Assembly (NCBI GenBank): GCA_012295275.1
Contig: CM022672.1
Span: 18,600,001-18,664,000, forward strand
DNA: 64,000 bases
From: Chrysomallon squamiferum
Taxonomy: Eukaryota; Animalia; Mollusca
Direction of reading: 5' to 3'
Each line of letters begins with the position of its first letter. Position 1 is the stretch's first letter. Position numbers and translations under genes: made by a program. Below the pieces are notes generated by a model. That model searched no databases. It worked only from the letters and a program-made list of their open reading frames with translations, and was not told where the DNA came from. Below are positions 14,443 to 62,080 of this stretch, one piece after another.

Positions 14443-17400
14443 ATGGCGTGGATTTCAACGACCGTAGTGATTTTCTGTCTATATTCATACGTTGCAGGCT
14501 TGTATTTCCACATAGGTGAAACAGAAAAAAAATGTTTCATTGAAGAAATACCAGACGAAACTATGGTAGTCGGTAAGTTGTCAGTTTTTATCTGCAGAAG
14601 TGACTTGTATTATATTGACACGTTGGCAAATCTGAAAGTTAGAAGACTCGTGTCCTGGCATATTGATCATTAGACACCGTTTTGCTGATTTTTGTAATTG
14701 GTAGAGTTTTCTTTTGTTATTAATTACAACTTGTCTGTTATACGTTAATTCGAATAAAAAAATGCCTGGGCACTTCTTTTTCTGTTACTTGACCTATTCT
14801 ACGAGTATTCAAATTTTGTTTCTTAATTAAAGTTAATCACTTATTGAAGTCTGGGTAATCACCCGTACTGTTACGTTTGTAATTGATGTGATATTTTTTA
14901 ATATTCGCTTCACAAAGTAACTAATGCATTTCTAAATATTAAACAAATATTTAAACGAAGTTATATGATACTTGCAACTGATACAATGTTAAATGTTAGT
15001 TTCCTGTGACGACCAATTTTTCTTGTTTATTATTAGTATTAATTTTAATTAATATGTGTGTACCTCTTCCAAAGTTTCATTAGATATGTCTCTGTAAACG
15101 TGAAATTTGGATTCAGTTCTTATTATCCTATAATTATTTCTTGATAAATAAATTCCATAAAGCTTTATTAAACTTTAAAGAATGTTCTTGCATTCTTAAT
15201 GTTGCTTTTTTATTGTAGATGTTGGGGGGGGGATGTTGGGTTTTTTAACACTTTAATGCAGTTACCTGGATTACATCAAAATACTTGTTTGGCATAGTGT
15301 AAAAACAAAATAAATAATATCTCTGGTAACAATTCAAGCATTATTGTAATCATGTGTATCCATATTTTCATTGCCTGATCATGCTCTGTGATATATAAAA
15401 CCAAGGCAGAGACATGTGTAAACACATTGGTAAACAGTATTTAATCACAGCAAAGGCATACATTTTAATATGGCTGATGTGGTAAAGGTGATAATTAAAT
15501 TCAAAATGATAAGTTGATAGTCACATAGCAATATTCAGTTATGTAAATACATTTGGCAAGTGGCCTTTTATGTATTATGTATTTAACTGTTTTGGGGTTG
15601 GACACAAAAAGGCATTTTAATTGTAAATATGCCTGGATTATTAGATAATAGTGCATATTAAAGGAAGTGGGGAGAATTCGCATCATAATGATTCTTCTAG
15701 AAGTTGGTAAGAGATTCTGCATCAAGCTTCTCTATCATTTAACTGACTTTCACATGGTTTGTTCTGAATATATTCTTCTAAAATAGGTGGCTAACAGAAT
15801 AATGTAGAAGAAATTTAGGAATACATTTCATGTGTATGTTGATTAATCCATTTTCAGGTAGATACAAAGTGGAGATATTTGATAAGAATATTAATGACTT
15901 TGTTCCCACTGTCACTGGTCTGGGAATGCACGTCGAAATCCGTGATCCTGATGATAAAATATTGTTATCCAGGGTAAGACGCTGAGAAATGTGAATGTAT
16001 TGGTTGTCATGGGTGCTAACATATACACATCAATGTATTCTTTCAAATGAAGTGTTTGTTCTTTCTGAATCTTGAATTTTTTTCTGATATTATATAATGC
16101 TGTTAATTTAAGGCATTTAAAAAAATAATGATATATAAAAAAAATCAATGCTATGCTTTCAGAATAACAGACATTTCTCAAAAAGATACATTGGTGTGTT
16201 TCATATATGTGCAAAATGTTAGCAACAATCAGATGAATTTTTCATTCATATATATATATGTGTGTAATCTTTTAATCACTAGTAATAACAGAAACATATC
16301 TACTGTTACATAAATGTAAACTGATATCTACATTATGGTGATTTCATTTTGAGGGGTGTTTTTCTAGAAACAGTATTTATACACATGTATGTTGATGCTA
16401 ACATTTTGTTCACGATTTGCATCAGTGCCTGCAAATCACTAATAATTTATGTGTGTGTAAACATATATTCACTGTATATTAACTAAACTATGTTTCAGGA
16501 AAATATAAAGTACAGGCATATGACGCCAAAGTTAAGGACTATTTGCCAGTAGCACCAGGTATAGGCATGCATGTTGAAATCAAAAGTCCTGATGAAAAAA
16601 TAATGTTGTCGAGGGTGAGTTCATCTGAAACTTTCCCAGCCAAGCAAGTTTTTATTTTTGGATTTCAGCTGCTTTATAGGATTAAGGACTTTTGATCCCA
16701 TTGTTCCTTTTCAAGCATTTATTTGTTATATGTTTTGAGTTACTGATATCAGTTGTTAATCCACATTGTTTTTTTTTTTTTTTTTTTTTCATTAATTCTG
16801 TTAATTATTTTAATTCTATTTATTTATATTTTATTTTTGATTAGAATGTTACTATAGAAGAAGTGATAATTTTATTATTTTATTGATTTTTTTCACTCTG
16901 TATATTTACAGTTCACATATAAATTTAATTTAGAGGAATTACATTTTTTTTTTTATTTTTTTATCTAGTAAAAAAACCCATTAATTTTGTGTAAAGTTAA
17001 ATATTGTCAGAAATAATAAAACTAATCTGAATAAATAATTTTGAATATTTAATTTCAAAATTCTTCTGTTAATGCCAATTTAATTTTTTATTTAATTTTA
17101 TTATTATTATTTGGTGGTAGTTTGTTTAATAAATTAATTTTTGTTGTTGTTTTTGTATTTTTCTGAGGGTTTTGGGGTGTTTTTTTGGCATTCCATTTTT
17201 TCTTTTTCCCACAGGCATTATTAATTGTTTTTAATAATTAATTTTGTTATTTTTTCCATGTTCAGAATGGATAGTTGTGTGCTAGAGCATGTAGCACATT
17301 ATATAAGTTTACATAACTTTTAAATTTTTCATTTAATGTTGGTGGCTGGTATATTTTCATTTTTTTTTTTTTAAAATTATTATTATTTTTTTTTTTTTTT

Positions 17401-17889
17401 TTTGCTGTAGCAGTTACAATGTCTGTTATAGTTGTTTGAAAACATTGGTTGCCATTAACATTTTGAAATTTTGCAAATTATATTTAGTCAGTATGTATGT
17501 ACAACACATTTTGCCAAGTTAAACAACAGCATTGTGATTGAAAGACTTTTTTTTTAAATATAATTTTAATGTGTAAATACTGGTCATTTTGATCAGTAAG
17601 TGATTATGAACAGATTTTATTTCTCAAGATATCAATGAACTATTGATCGGTTAATTGTTGCTAGTTTAACAATGTATTTTCGGTTGGTCACTAATTTTTT
17701 ATTGTTTTCAGGTAATGATAATTAAAAATAATATAGCAACTCGTATAGTTATTTGAATTATTATAACAATAAATGCTTAATAATCATTCTAATCCATTTT
17801 TCATTATAATGCTATTAATCATTTAATGCAATATTAATTTATATATATATATATAGATAGATCAATATATATGTATATGCATACATACA

Positions 17890-17928
<39 letters not shown>

Positions 17929-18943
17929 TTGTATGTACGTATGTATGTAAATGTGGCAGTGATTTATATAATTAATTTTTATTTTATTTTATTATTTTTT
18001 TTTTTTTCTTCTTTCTTCATATTGCAGACGTACGCTGCAGAAGGCAGGTTCACTTTCACCTCCCACTCAGCTGGAGAGCACTCTGTGTGCCTCCATTCAA
18101 ACTCCACAGCTTGGTTCTCAGGAGGACAGCTGGTAAGATATATTGTATGTTGTATTGACAATTACATTTTTACTTACTGACACATTAATAACATGGGGAG
18201 GGCAAAATTCCTGGAATTAACAGGTGGTGGGGGGAGACACAAGTCTAAATTTAGATTAAATTAAGGGCATTCGCACCAATGGTAACCACTGCCATTAGAG
18301 AACTTCATAACGTCTGTTGGTATTTCTTATCAGCAGCAAGCAAAGAGTTAATTTAATATTATCTCTGTTATACAGAATGATGGCATTATAGACCATGTTA
18401 CATTATTTTAATGTTATTTTTTTTTTTTTATTTTTTTTGTCTAGAGAGTCCACCTTGACATTCAAGTAGGTGAGCATGCAGTCGACTATCAGCAGATCCA
18501 GGCCAAAGACAAACTGAGTGAGTTACAGCTTAGAGTGAGGCAGCTTCTCGATCAAGTGGAGCAGATAACAAAGGAACAGAACTATCAAAGAGTAAGTTTA
18601 GACCTCAGTTTAAAACAACACTTCCAGGCAAACATCACTAAAAAGTCAACAAATATAAAAAAGTTTTTCTCGATCTTAAGACAGTAAAAACCAACTTATA
18701 TTTACGTCTAAATTAAAACAAAATTATTTAATAATTTTATTGTTACATATAAAAGACAATTCGAAAATATATATTTTTTGTTGTTGTTTGCAGTATCGAG
18801 AGGAGAGATTCCGGGCGACGAGTGAGAGTACAAATCAGAGAGTACTATGGTGGTCTATTGCACAAACTGTTATCCTCCTAATAACTGGCTTCTGGCAGAT
18901 GAGACATTTAAAGAGCTTTTTCGAAGCTAAAAAATTAGTTTAA
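14443..18943 (+). CDS. TMED9: p24-alpha family cargo receptor (TMED9/TMED4/eclair-like)
   Basis: Exons 14443-14572, [15858-15973 or 16499-16614], 18028-18132, 18445-18591, 18794-18943; 215 aa. Signal peptide, [59 protein letters not shown] helix and C-terminal [12 protein letters not shown]9 versus TMED4 orthology cannot be resolved. Confidence 0.93.
15858..15973 (+). CDS. TMED mutually exclusive exon 2a
   Basis: ttttcag|GT...AGG|gtaaga, 116 nt, (G)[38 protein letters not shown]. Confidence 0.9.
16499..16614 (+). CDS. TMED mutually exclusive exon 2b
   Basis: gtttcag|GA...AGG|gtgagt, 116 nt, (G)[38 protein letters not shown]. Confidence 0.9.
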
Positions 18944-56100: not shown

Positions 56101-57448
56101 CGTAACTTTCCTAATTACAAGTGGCGATAATTCCAAACAATATTTAAGTCGTGTGACAGAAGAGATGAGTTGGCATGCTTTATATACCATCTGTTTCGAT
56201 GATATGAGGTCAAGTTTTTATTATTATTATTAATATTATTATTATTATTATTATTATTAGATATAATTATAGCAAAATTGATTATAACTGAAAGGTATAA
56301 AAATATATTTTGTTTGGCTTTCTAGTTTCGTTGATAAATAAAACTAAGTTCCAAAGTAATTAACTCTAACAGTAAGTTAGTAACATCTTGAAATAGATTT
56401 GATAGGTTCTAGCACGAGGCCGTGTATATGGCTGTTGTTGTTGTTGTTATTATTATTATTATTGTTATTATTGTTATTATTATTAGTAGTAGTATTAGTA
56501 TTAGTATTAGTATTAGTATTATTATTATGTCTTCTTGTTTAACACCAATAAAAGGGGAAAAAAACAACATAGCCACACCCACACTAAAAATACACCCTAA
56601 GTACTTTATTTCTTTATAAGACTTTATTTGATAACTTTAATAATCTTAATGTAACAGTAATCTTTTCTTGATTAATCATTTCAAGAAACCAAATTTGATA
56701 ATGATAAAGGAAGTTTATATATTAATATATAGGTTTTAAAAATATTTATTTATTTGTTTATTTATTATTTATATATTTATCATTAAAATTTTAAAAGCTA
56801 ATTCTTTAACTGGAATAATACAACAAGACTAATAAGAAATAAAACTATTTCTTGATTATTATTATTATTGTGTGTGAATTTTGTTTGGTAAAAATTTTAA
56901 TACCATATGTGAAATCACACAAACTACTAACACTAAACATAATAATATATGAATAAATATATGAACAAATAAATAATAAATGAAAATAAAATAATTAATT
57001 TTAAAAACTGACTCTTTAAAGATGTCTATTTAAATAACTGTTAAATTGTTAATATATTTGTGTTTATCTTAAGCATCCCATAATTATGTAACGTGGATAA
57101 AAATTTTTTTTTTACCAAAAAACAACAACAGAGGAAACATAACACTTTCCTTTACTTTTTGTACCAGCAGATTTAAGATTACCACAACTAAATTTGTGCA
57201 AGTTAATATTTGTCATGATTTGAAACTATAATTTACATAATTTATTTCTTTAAATATTTTTTTTATATTTTCTCTACTTTTTTCCTTCTTACAGGTTTTA
57301 TACATTAAAGCTTGATTCTCTGGTAATGAAGAATATTGCAGAATGACATCTTTATTTAATCTGAAATTAAATTTGTTCAAAACTAAAAAAGTAACTTCAG
57401 TATTATTTTGTCTACTAAGACACTAATTACTTCTTAAAATAATTCAGA

Positions 57449-59260
57449 ATGTGGAAGTTCAAAATAAATATTCCACCAGACGTATATTATGGCTCAATGT
57501 CATTTTACATAACTGTTTTAAACAACGTCTTTCTCTTGTATCATGTGGACATGTTTGTATCGGTGTACAAAATTAACAAGCTCTCATTCTGGATTGGCGA
57601 AGTCATATTCTTGGTCTGGAATTCTCTAAACGACCCTCTCTTTGGCTGGATTAGTGACAAGAAATACCTTTCAGCATCGTCCAAATTCAGCAGCAGCACT
57701 GAAGTGATTTTGCAGAGACTGACTGCCCTCCAGAGAAACGGTCCACTGTTTGCCTTGTCTTTTCTTCTGTTTTGGGTCTCGTGGGCTTACCCGTGGCTTC
57801 AGTTTGTTGTGTGTTTGTGTACGTATGATGGTTTTCTCACCATGATCGATCTTCATCACTCATCTCTGCTGGCAGACCTGGCAGTCTCGGCAGAAGTAAG
57901 GACAAGATTAAACTCTCGCTGTTCACTTTTCGCAGCTGCAGGTTCGGCATCAGTGTTTCTGTCTTACGCTGTGTGGGACAAGGGTAACTTGACGTCATTC
58001 CGAATATTCTGCGTGGTTCTCACTGTAATATCCTTGCTCGGCTTTTTCTGGTCGTCCAGTGCCTTAAAGAAACATTACAAGAATCTTCACAGGCAGCACG
58101 AAGAACATGGGTATGATTCAACAGAATTTGTGTGTTTTTAAATAAATATTTATTCTGCTTATCCAGTTTAAAAAAAGTAAAGTTTGAAGTCATGTAAGAT
58201 TTTTGAACGTTTTAAAAATGTAATATTTATGCATTGAAAGGTTATAAAATGTTGAAAGAAAATATATTTTGTGTTTTTAAGTAAATTATTTTATTGAATT
58301 AAAATACAAAAAATTAGTTGTATTTTGAAGAATATTTTTCTATATTCACTAAATGTGCACATTTGTATGTTGATGAATAAAAAAAGCACAACAACATAAT
58401 GTACAAATATTTATAATTATTTTCTTTATACAGAGGTTTAATGTTTCAGTTTTAATGTTGGAAAGACTTAAAAGAACAACTTTAAAGTAGATAATCTTTA
58501 TACTTTTGATCATGACAACAGCTGAATCATTTTATAAATTTCTAATCATGTATTTGTGAAGATTACTGTTATTTTTCTACAGTCGGTCAACAAGTGCAAT
58601 TGTTCCTGACATGTTGAATGGACAGAAGAAACTCATGAAGAAATTTGTCTTTCAACTCTTGTCTCAGAAAAACTTTCTCTGGTTTGCAGTAATGAACATT
58701 ATTCAGGTTTGTGTTTGTTTGTTTGTTTGTTTTATATGAAACATATATAAAAATACATAATTCACTTTATAGATTGGAAATTTGCCTTTTGAGGTCATTC
58801 ATTCATTGCAGAAGTAAAGGATATCAATACTAACATATGAACACATATTTTCTGTAATATTATTTCAACAAAAAATTCGGATATATAATATATCATCCCA
58901 TCAGCAAAATCAGGAATTCACTTATTCTTTGAATTTAAATAAAAATTTAAATAAAAGATGTAAAACAAAAGAAGATTATTGAATTGATTGTTTCATAAAT
59001 TGTTGTTGTTGGTTTTTGAGCAGACTTTTCTACCTGTCAGTATCATTTCTTAGTTTATTTCTAGTACTGACTTTCATTTATAATAAACTGGTATTTAAAT
59101 GTAAATATACCACATTATTTTAGAGCAGTTTGTCACATGTATATGTATTATATTTATTATAACATATAATATCATATTAATAAATATTAAAGTGATCATC
59201 CTTTTCTTTTCAATTCACATTTTATATCTGTGTATATGTGTGTGTGTATATATGTATGTA

Positions 59261-61303: not shown

Positions 61304-61944
61304 CATTATTTTGTCAGTATTAGATAGGTTAGTCATGTGTATATCTTAAAGGTTAAGATACAGTTCTGTCAATGTTTGATTTCAGCTTCAGTTTGCTTCA
61401 CCTGCGTTTCTAAATCCATCATGTGCCAACAACTGATTTATCAAACACTACAGAGAGATATATATAGTGTGTGTGTGTGTGTGCATGCATGCATGTGTTT
61501 GTGTGTGAGTCTGTGTGTGTTTTTCATCCACAGAATGTGCAGGTGTTCTTATTACTGGTTATTTTTTGTTTTAATAATTTATTGAAATGTGTATTCACTA
61601 AAGCATATTCAAGTAATTTACCCAGCAATCTTATTTGTTTATTTATTTATTTTTCATTTTATTTTAGCCAGTAGTGCAGTATATATAATATTTTGTCAAC
61701 TAATCCCACATGTTTAATTTTTAATTTTTTTTTATATATTATACTACCAGCAACCGTGTGTTCACTGAGGGTACGTGCAAGCTGTTGAATCTAGTTATAT
61801 CGGATCTAGTGGATGAGGACTGTGTGATGCACCACAGAAAACAGGCAGTGTCAGCTCTCATGTTTGGAACTGCAGCTCTCCTGTCAAAACCAGGACAGAC
61901 TCTGGCGCCACTCGTGGGCACATGGTTACTGGCCTTGGAAACAG
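57449..61944 (+). CDS. MFSD13A: Transmembrane protein 180 / MFS domain-containing 13A (3'-partial)
   Basis: Exons 57449-58110, 58583-58706, 59418-59514, 60957-61128, 61751-61944; continues past the window. Motifs [88 protein letters not shown]. Confidence 0.93.
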
Positions 61945-62080
61945 GTCAGTTATGTAATGTTTTGTTATGTACATGACACTTGAAACAGGTCGCTTTCATA
62001 ATATTTTGATGTATATGTAACACTCATCTCATTCTGTGAAATATTTAATTGTTTGTATATAATGTTTAATTATATATATA

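Follow-up and report, generated by a model that had tools for sequence, protein, structure and literature searches.

Vertebrates diversified their p24-alpha proteins by gene duplication, giving TMED4, TMED9 and TMED11. Members of the p24/TMED family (PF01105) have a signal peptide, a GOLD domain, a coiled coil, one transmembrane helix and a short tail, and how the GOLD domain chooses cargo and partners remains an open question. In human TMED9, the cargo MUC1-fs binds the edge of strand beta2 at E52, and the GOLD domain is flexible and poorly ordered in cryo-EM (PMC11414720); the protein is a drug target in human proteinopathies (PMC11414720, PMC13404660). In Drosophila, the GOLD domain of Eclair is required for localisation, which the authors credit to Tango1 binding (PMC10932740).

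Switching between duplicated exons is a well-known splicing class (PMC9741552, PMC5740500, PMC8373072, PMC7969005, PMC3912159, PMC13404660). Catalogues of tandem duplicated exon substitutions describe ancient pairs of equal length and phase, with lengths not divisible by three and with core residues kept, and are enriched in ion channels and in muscle and brain genes (PMC9741552, PMC5740500). In human, 60% of the clusters have exons whose length is no multiple of three (PMC5740500) and three quarters of the substitution events are tissue-specific (PMC9741552). Two described systems invite direct comparison. The duplicated exon of Ca-alpha1T/cca-1 forms a protostome-wide pair that includes molluscs (PMC9741552), and exons 4a/4b of OGDH form an exclusive cluster of two, with a spacer longer than simple steric exclusion would allow, in which distant branch points are used (PMC7969005). 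The terms TMED, p24, annelid and Lophotrochozoa are absent from the main text of PMC9741552, as are TMED, eca, eclair and emp24 from one of its supplements and TMED from the main text of PMC5740500. A literature search, with most subscription papers and supplements outside its scope, retrieved no publication on a duplicated exon in p24-alpha.

Here we describe such a pair in a p24-alpha gene of the mollusc Chrysomallon squamiferum, located in a stretch of 64,000 nucleotides (64 kb) of contig CM022672.1 (hereafter, the window). It is a very old member of this known splicing class, both wider in distribution and older than the initial annotation of the window supposed. We have very little doubt that the tandemly duplicated exon 2 is a real and ancient alternative pair. 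Equal length and phase, a length not divisible by three, retained core residues and great age are shared with the catalogued cases, whereas the gene encodes a secretory cargo receptor. Its age is comparable to that of the Ca-alpha1T/cca-1 pair, which by contrast belongs to an ion channel and occurs in arthropods and nematodes, where no p24-alpha pair was seen.

A p24-alpha gene with two copies of exon 2

The gene lies on the plus strand of the window and comprises six exons, including both exon 2 copies (A and B):

14443..14572, plus strand: coding exon 1 (130 nt from the ATG, ending in phase 1; from frame reconstruction and contigs of RNA runs X2 and X3), encoding the signal peptide and GOLD strands beta1-beta2, including the KKCFIEE edge
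15858..15973, plus strand: exon 2A (116 nt, residues 44-82), derived-looking, with E49, N56, V59 and T61 and without Pro at 63
15974..16498, plus strand: spacer intron between A and B (525 nt)
16499..16614, plus strand: exon 2B (116 nt, residues 44-82), outgroup-like, with Q49, K56, P63 and I65
18028..18132, plus strand: exon 3 (105 nt), second half of the GOLD domain; its joint with B is present in RNA run X1
18445..18591, plus strand: exon 4 (147 nt), last GOLD strand and coiled coil; its joint with exon 5 is present in RNA run X3
18794..18943, plus strand: exon 5 (150 nt to the stop), transmembrane helix and FF..KK tail

The encoded protein has every element of the p24/TMED architecture, and the A and B forms of its closest relatives match PF01105 with an E-value of 4e-58. 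It is closest to alpha members, with a longer GOLD hairpin region and a KK tail; a close relative (P0124) matches TMED9 at E 1e-102, versus 4.5e-26 for TMED10 and 9e-15 for TMED2. Human TMED9 (PDB 9CJK and 21GL chain A), TMED4 and Drosophila Eclair agree with it in the order of the domains, in the cysteines of the GOLD domain, in the coiled coil and in the FF..KK tail. In contrast to the window gene, no second exon-2 form was seen in the outgroup p24-alpha proteins that were read.

The exon coordinates, 116-nt lengths, phases, canonical splice sites and 525-nt spacer reported in the initial annotation were all reproduced from the window sequence. Each copy is preceded by AG and followed by GT, and neither contains an in-frame stop. 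A and B are adjacent, homologous exons of equal phase that encode the same protein region, as in other tandem duplicated exon substitutions. They are identical at 76 of 116 nucleotides and 21 of 39 amino acids, and the two complete proteins share 197 of 215 positions. Either copy alone yields an open reading frame of 648 nt (215 amino acids). Including both or neither breaks the frame, as was first proposed: the former meets a stop at codon 100 and the latter at codon 83, located 314 and 133 nt, respectively, upstream of the last exon junction.

The resemblance of A and B greatly exceeds chance: within the window, they find each other by tblastn at E 5e-14, and an exon-2 peptide profile run against the 64 kb gave two strong matches, A and B, with the next best at E 3.6. 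Their nucleotide similarity scarcely exceeds the exon ends (a single 148-nt blastn match at 70%). Since the similarity is nearly confined to the exons, the pair is neither a segment copied recently nor a repeat created by the assembly. The uncorrected pN/pS between A and B within the window is 0.28/0.57, which is not very low.

Among named relatives, the gastropod Gigantopelta aegis is the closest, and in it the same two isoforms are present as automatic models labelled 'eca-like isoform X1/X2' (XP_041368114.1 and XP_041368115.1). Exon A is 97% identical to the Gigantopelta X2 segment and exon B 85% to the X1 segment; these X1/X2 labels are not consistent with the A or B type between species.

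Elsewhere in the window, long stop-free frames of neighbouring genes were observed at 57443-58138 and 61725-61973 on the plus strand and at 38911-38114 and 375-1 on the minus strand. By impression, these frames include two hydrophobic transporter-like stretches, one 266-aa frame and one helix-turn-helix-like motif.

Distribution and age of the exon pair

A search with the Gigantopelta protein retrieved 989 relatives, the best 120 of which were considered, and 22 cluster look-ups added further members. From these we hand-picked 30 isoform pairs because both forms were present; most are gene models whose read support is not visible. They come from 10 gastropods, 11 bivalves, 3 cephalopods, 1 chiton, 2 nemerteans, 2 annelids and 1 unassigned source. 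In 29 of the 30 chosen pairs (25 molluscan), the two proteins are identical outside the exon-2 segment, the exception being Ruditapes, where they also differ in the last exon. The pair had been attributed to this lineage alone, a view that does not hold: it spans four mollusc classes and is possibly older. Species listed with a single form (e.g. Lottia, Dreissena, Capitella and Lamellibrachia) are not scorable either way.

No such pair was seen in outgroups. The isoforms of Saccoglossus differ at the N terminus only, with no second exon-2 form among the proteins read, the seven Branchiostoma members (7/7) carry one exon type, and none of the 15 listed members, out of 79, of the Drosophila cluster is labelled as an isoform. 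A metagenome scan found two exon-2 copies in none of 80 loci, many of which are transcripts. The best matches of these 80 loci are mostly arthropod-, rotifer- or coral-like, and in none of them was a molluscan exon with genomic flanks the clear best match. Searching for homologues by exon 1 alone returned fragments only. One genomic locus (L003) carries an A-type exon (852-968) with the same boundaries, followed by exon 3 about 0.8 kb later with no copy between them, on a contig that does not include exon 1. Judging from this locus, some A-type carriers may lack B.

The two exons behave as separate lineages in molluscs. Across 20 molluscan pairs including that of the window, identity between species is 0.75 for A with A and 0.69 for B with B, and that between A and B within a species is 0.56. 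Among two-species quartets, 189 of 190 favour orthology of A and of B, with one tie. In a tree of 68 rows and 39 columns, one branch separated molluscan A from molluscan B in every one of 200 bootstrap trees (100%); its support values of 86/91 were not starred, and the bootstrap was still unsettled. A separate duplication in each species is rejected by the AU test (p 0.0004). A separate duplication in each class is rejected by AU (p 0.0003) and not by SH (p 0.13). Fast searches gave the same AU outcome for both. Molluscan A and B are thus two orthologous types, so that the sequence comparisons give good support to a single duplication that predates the mollusc classes. The mollusc classes diverged more than about 500 million years ago. 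Both types are conserved at the protein level in 20 species, which strongly implies purifying selection on both exons. Taking the window A and B as sisters, tested singly, is not rejected by AU (p 0.073, with the low power of 39 columns).

Molluscan B adjoins the single exons of the outgroups in the tree, and the first exons of annelids, nemerteans and brachiopods fall on the A side, sharing E49, T61 and the loss of P63. From these states, B looks like the outgroup single exon and A looks derived. An origin of the pair in the lophotrochozoan ancestor is favoured, although the second exons of annelids fall apart from B. Owenia, Dimorphilus and the one unassigned pair have second exons that the tree places on the A side, and nemertean second exons formed their own group. 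Placements of this kind would be expected if the annelid and nemertean pairs arose by independent, convergent duplications and only the molluscan pair went back to one event, an alternative that we rate a little below even. It is consistent with the AU test, which does not reject a mollusc-only duplication tested singly (p 0.138, with the low power of 39 columns), with Lingula, which has two A-like genes and no second form among the members listed, and with the lone A-type exon of locus L003; convergent duplications are, in addition, common in this class of exons (PMC9741552). However, it leaves the grouping of the annelid, nemertean and brachiopod first exons with molluscan A to be accounted for, while B keeps the outgroup state. 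That grouping is most simply read as a split older than the divergence of these phyla, after which B was lost or changed fast, and three of the second exons are long branches.

Other exons of the gene also occur in more than one copy among the relatives. A second homologous last exon (transmembrane segment and tail) was noticed in P0190 (Mercenaria X3), P0290 (Ruditapes X3), P0218 (Physella X3) and P0229 (Babylonia X3), from two clams and two snails; these copies share RVF and FFI in place of the usual RVL and FFE. They possibly represent a second old duplication in molluscs. In the gene models of two tubeworms, P0125 (Lamellibrachia) and P0260 (Ridgeia), there are two tandem coiled-coil exon copies of 49 and 51 aa, which are 57% and 45% identical to exon 4 of the window. 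Transcripts P0159, P0179 and P0182 differ from P0146, P0148 and P0181 in exon 2 and in the transmembrane segment; exon 2 of P0182 looks half first-type and half second-type, and this transcript may be an assembly chimera. A tblastn search of the window found neither a second last exon nor a second exon 4, the best off-gene match being on the minus strand at E 0.03.

The exchanged segment of the GOLD domain

Near-fixed differences separate the 20 A from the 20 B sequences at several positions. Residue 49 is E in 18 A and Q in 20 B sequences, residue 54 is N in 19 A and variable in B, and residue 56 is N in all 20 A and K in 19 B. The same contrast is found at position 59 (V in 20 A; M in 11 and L in 8 B), 61 (T in 19 A; V in 9 and S in 8 B), 62 (V in 17 A; A in 12 and S in 5 B), 65 (L in 19 A; I in 14 B) and 68 (H in 19 A; H in 9 and L in 8 B). 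Proline at position 63 is present in 1 of 20 A sequences, 17 of 20 B sequences and 15 of 15 outgroup exons. Residues G66, M67, V69, E70, D73, P74, S81 and R82, in the core strand, are common to both types. Net charge differs between A and B with no consistent sign across species.

The fixed differences concentrate in what is predicted to be a beta-hairpin with a loop (residues 49-65). When the GOLD domain of the Gigantopelta B form was modelled on its own (pLDDT 84.8, pTM 0.76), window residues 40-52, 57-60, 67-72 and 78-84 came out as strands, 53-56 as a turn and 61-66 as a loop. This model matches known p24 GOLD structures (5AZW: Z 13.8, rmsd 2.0, 92 aligned). The full-length model of the A form was poor (pTM 0.31), and a good model is at hand for the B form only. 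On that model, the A/B differences would map to where the long strand ends, to the turn that follows, to the return strand and to the loop after it. The hairpin is predicted to be surface-exposed, from topology only, and the TMED10 alignment has a gap of 7-8 residues at this place.

The initial annotation noted that the GOLD domain is the part of p24 proteins that meets luminal cargo and partners. The mapped TMED9 cargo edge, however, lies outside the switched segment. Human TMED9 E52 aligns with E34 of the window protein, which is encoded in exon 1, so the mapped cargo edge is unaffected by the switch. As the GOLD domain of Eclair is needed for a localisation that has been attributed to Tango1 binding, Tango1 and other p24 GOLD domains are candidate partners of the switched segment.

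Taken together, we consider it probable that this ancient spliced pair swaps a predicted GOLD hairpin and loop, likely changing the preferred luminal partner or cargo. B would keep the general animal surface (Q49, P63 and I65), and A would carry a derived one (E49, N56, V59, T61, V62 and the loss of P63). Both forms would have the same fold, cargo edge (from exon 1), coiled coil and COPI/COPII tail. One gene would then give two receptors with the same trafficking and different luminal preference, probably in different tissues. That the functional difference between A and B is partner binding at the hairpin is about an even bet.

Alternatively, A and B may be near-equivalent in binding, with the switch tuning the amount of p24-alpha, its folding stability or its self-oligomerisation. 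The core strand residues that both types share, the location of the mapped cargo edge in exon 1, the flexibility of the TMED9 GOLD domain in cryo-EM (PMC11414720) and the inconsistent charge difference all speak for such a role. Yet opposite near-fixed residues in 20 species of four classes are hard to account for unless each copy is under its own constraint, and a pure dosage device would need no two sequences; we therefore regard near-equivalence as rather unlikely.

Transcripts and the choice between A and B

The transcript evidence consists of assembled contigs from three of the four RNA runs of one study that cover the stretch, with no tissue labels, in which rare forms get dropped; an additional run (X5) is of unrecorded kind and DNA-like. 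The joint between exon 1 and A is present in RNA runs X2 and X3, the X2 contig (145 nt) including the whole of A. The X3 record of this joint has the same depth figure (21.3) as that of the exon 1 to B joint and was not counted as independent. Exon 1 is joined to B in a 172-nt contig of X3, with B central and 28 letters on either side, and B is joined to exon 3 in X1 (record 5), with the spacer upstream of B retained. Contigs thus contain junctions 14572->15858, 14572->16499 and 16614->18028, three of the four that the initial annotation singled out. The fourth, 15973->18028, is inferred from a 57-nt X1 contig, 29 nt of which are the end of A and 28 letters of which are unplaced. Contig depths in X3 were 51.3 for A and 21.3 for B, figures unsuited to ranking the isoforms.

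Each exon is therefore included in transcripts, as the exon 1 to A, exon 1 to B and B to exon 3 contigs attest, and the proposal that the gene makes two p24-alpha variants through exon switching is borne out: both exons are used in RNA and both are conserved across species. The refuting outcome named in the initial annotation, an exon absent from all transcripts and free of constraint, was thus not observed. Neither A to B joints nor joints skipping from exon 1 to exon 3 were found in the contigs of the three RNA runs, from which rare forms are dropped.

X1 contigs at 15228-15973 and 16274-16613 retain upstream intron sequence, before A and before B respectively; in the case of B, the downstream intron has already been removed. 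Such intron-retaining contigs may be splicing intermediates, retained introns or products of internal starts. The joining of B to exon 3 while the spacer is retained hints at a downstream-first choice.

That the choice must be exclusive, as originally stated, is too strong. The frame eliminates products with both or neither exon, but in-frame models with A and part of B exist in oysters: in five species (P0130 and P0282-P0285), a 242-aa model joins A to the last 26 codons of B. The window has an AG at the same place within B (16535-16536), which leaves 78 nt and an open A plus partial-B frame of 241 aa. This third product, with a doubled strand-turn-strand, could be a real conserved isoform, which we find quite improbable. 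The corresponding joint, like any other between A and B, is missing from the contigs of the three RNA runs, the AG arises from a conserved Lys codon, and the added codons would repeat a portion of a beta-sandwich. Among the proteins read, only oysters have it, and their models may be splicing noise that escapes decay.

One of the copies might be taken for a pseudo-exon of recent origin or for an artefact of the assembly. This general possibility, which the pN/pS value given above would allow, has practically no chance of being true and is refuted by the RNA joints of both copies, by the separate orthologues of each in 20 species, by 29 of the 30 isoform pairs, by an X5 contig that spans A and its upstream intron and by the RNA contigs on A or B alone, which show 0 other letters where intron contigs show many (30 difference rows left out).

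The initial annotation also dismissed steric exclusion on account of spacer length. The dismissal stands on other grounds: length alone is insufficient, as a distant branch point is possible. Hatje et al. give a branch point less than 50 nt from the donor as the range of steric exclusion (PMC5740500). A CTAAC branch-point-like motif does lie 45 nt past the A donor (its A at 16019) but precedes 13 AGs, and an ordinary branch-point-like TTAAC is located 17 nt before B. On this sequence evidence, steric exclusion by a close or a distant branch point is not supported. The locus resembles OGDH in its long spacer, whereas the distant branch points used there (PMC7969005) find no support in a motif near the donor that precedes 13 AGs.

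Base pairing in the spacer was also considered. A 13-bp inverted repeat (16212-16224 with 16396-16408) covers a CTAAC motif and could form an extended duplex of -23.1 kcal/mol, and an alternative 10-bp pairing would reach downstream of B (16212-16221 with 17456-17465; -16.4 kcal/mol). One spacer segment with two competing partners resembles a Dscam-type docking and selector layout, although the pairing is within the window background: 13 bp were reached in 8 of 500 shuffles and in 16 of 121 window tiles.

Most likely, the choice comes about through competition between splice sites, combined with decay of the frameshifted products. The A and B donors would likely compete for the exon-3 acceptor, B being removed once A is chosen, and transcripts with both exons or neither, given their premature stops, would likely undergo nonsense-mediated decay. 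By analogy with the human events, the choice between A and B is rather likely to be tissue-regulated.

The switch belongs to a kind of system that is already known, and its isoforms are already in RefSeq as unremarked X1/X2 models. It brings a gene of the secretory pathway into the small set of very old exon switches known from invertebrates. An unlikely and more far-reaching reading is that the lophotrochozoan ancestor, after duplicating exon 2, evolved the type A hairpin as a cargo-specificity switch for secretions peculiar to certain lineages (matrix proteins of shell, chaetae or mucus), within what became a combinatorial receptor in which exons 2, 4 and the last were each duplicated. If this were true, splicing would do here what gene duplication did in vertebrates, and the hairpin would be an unrecognised specificity site of p24-alpha. 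The locus is a natural paired experiment, with two near-identical proteins whose differences are held across mollusc classes and are concentrated in one predicted hairpin outside the published cargo model. Comparison of A and B gives a direct route to asking whether that hairpin is a specificity site.
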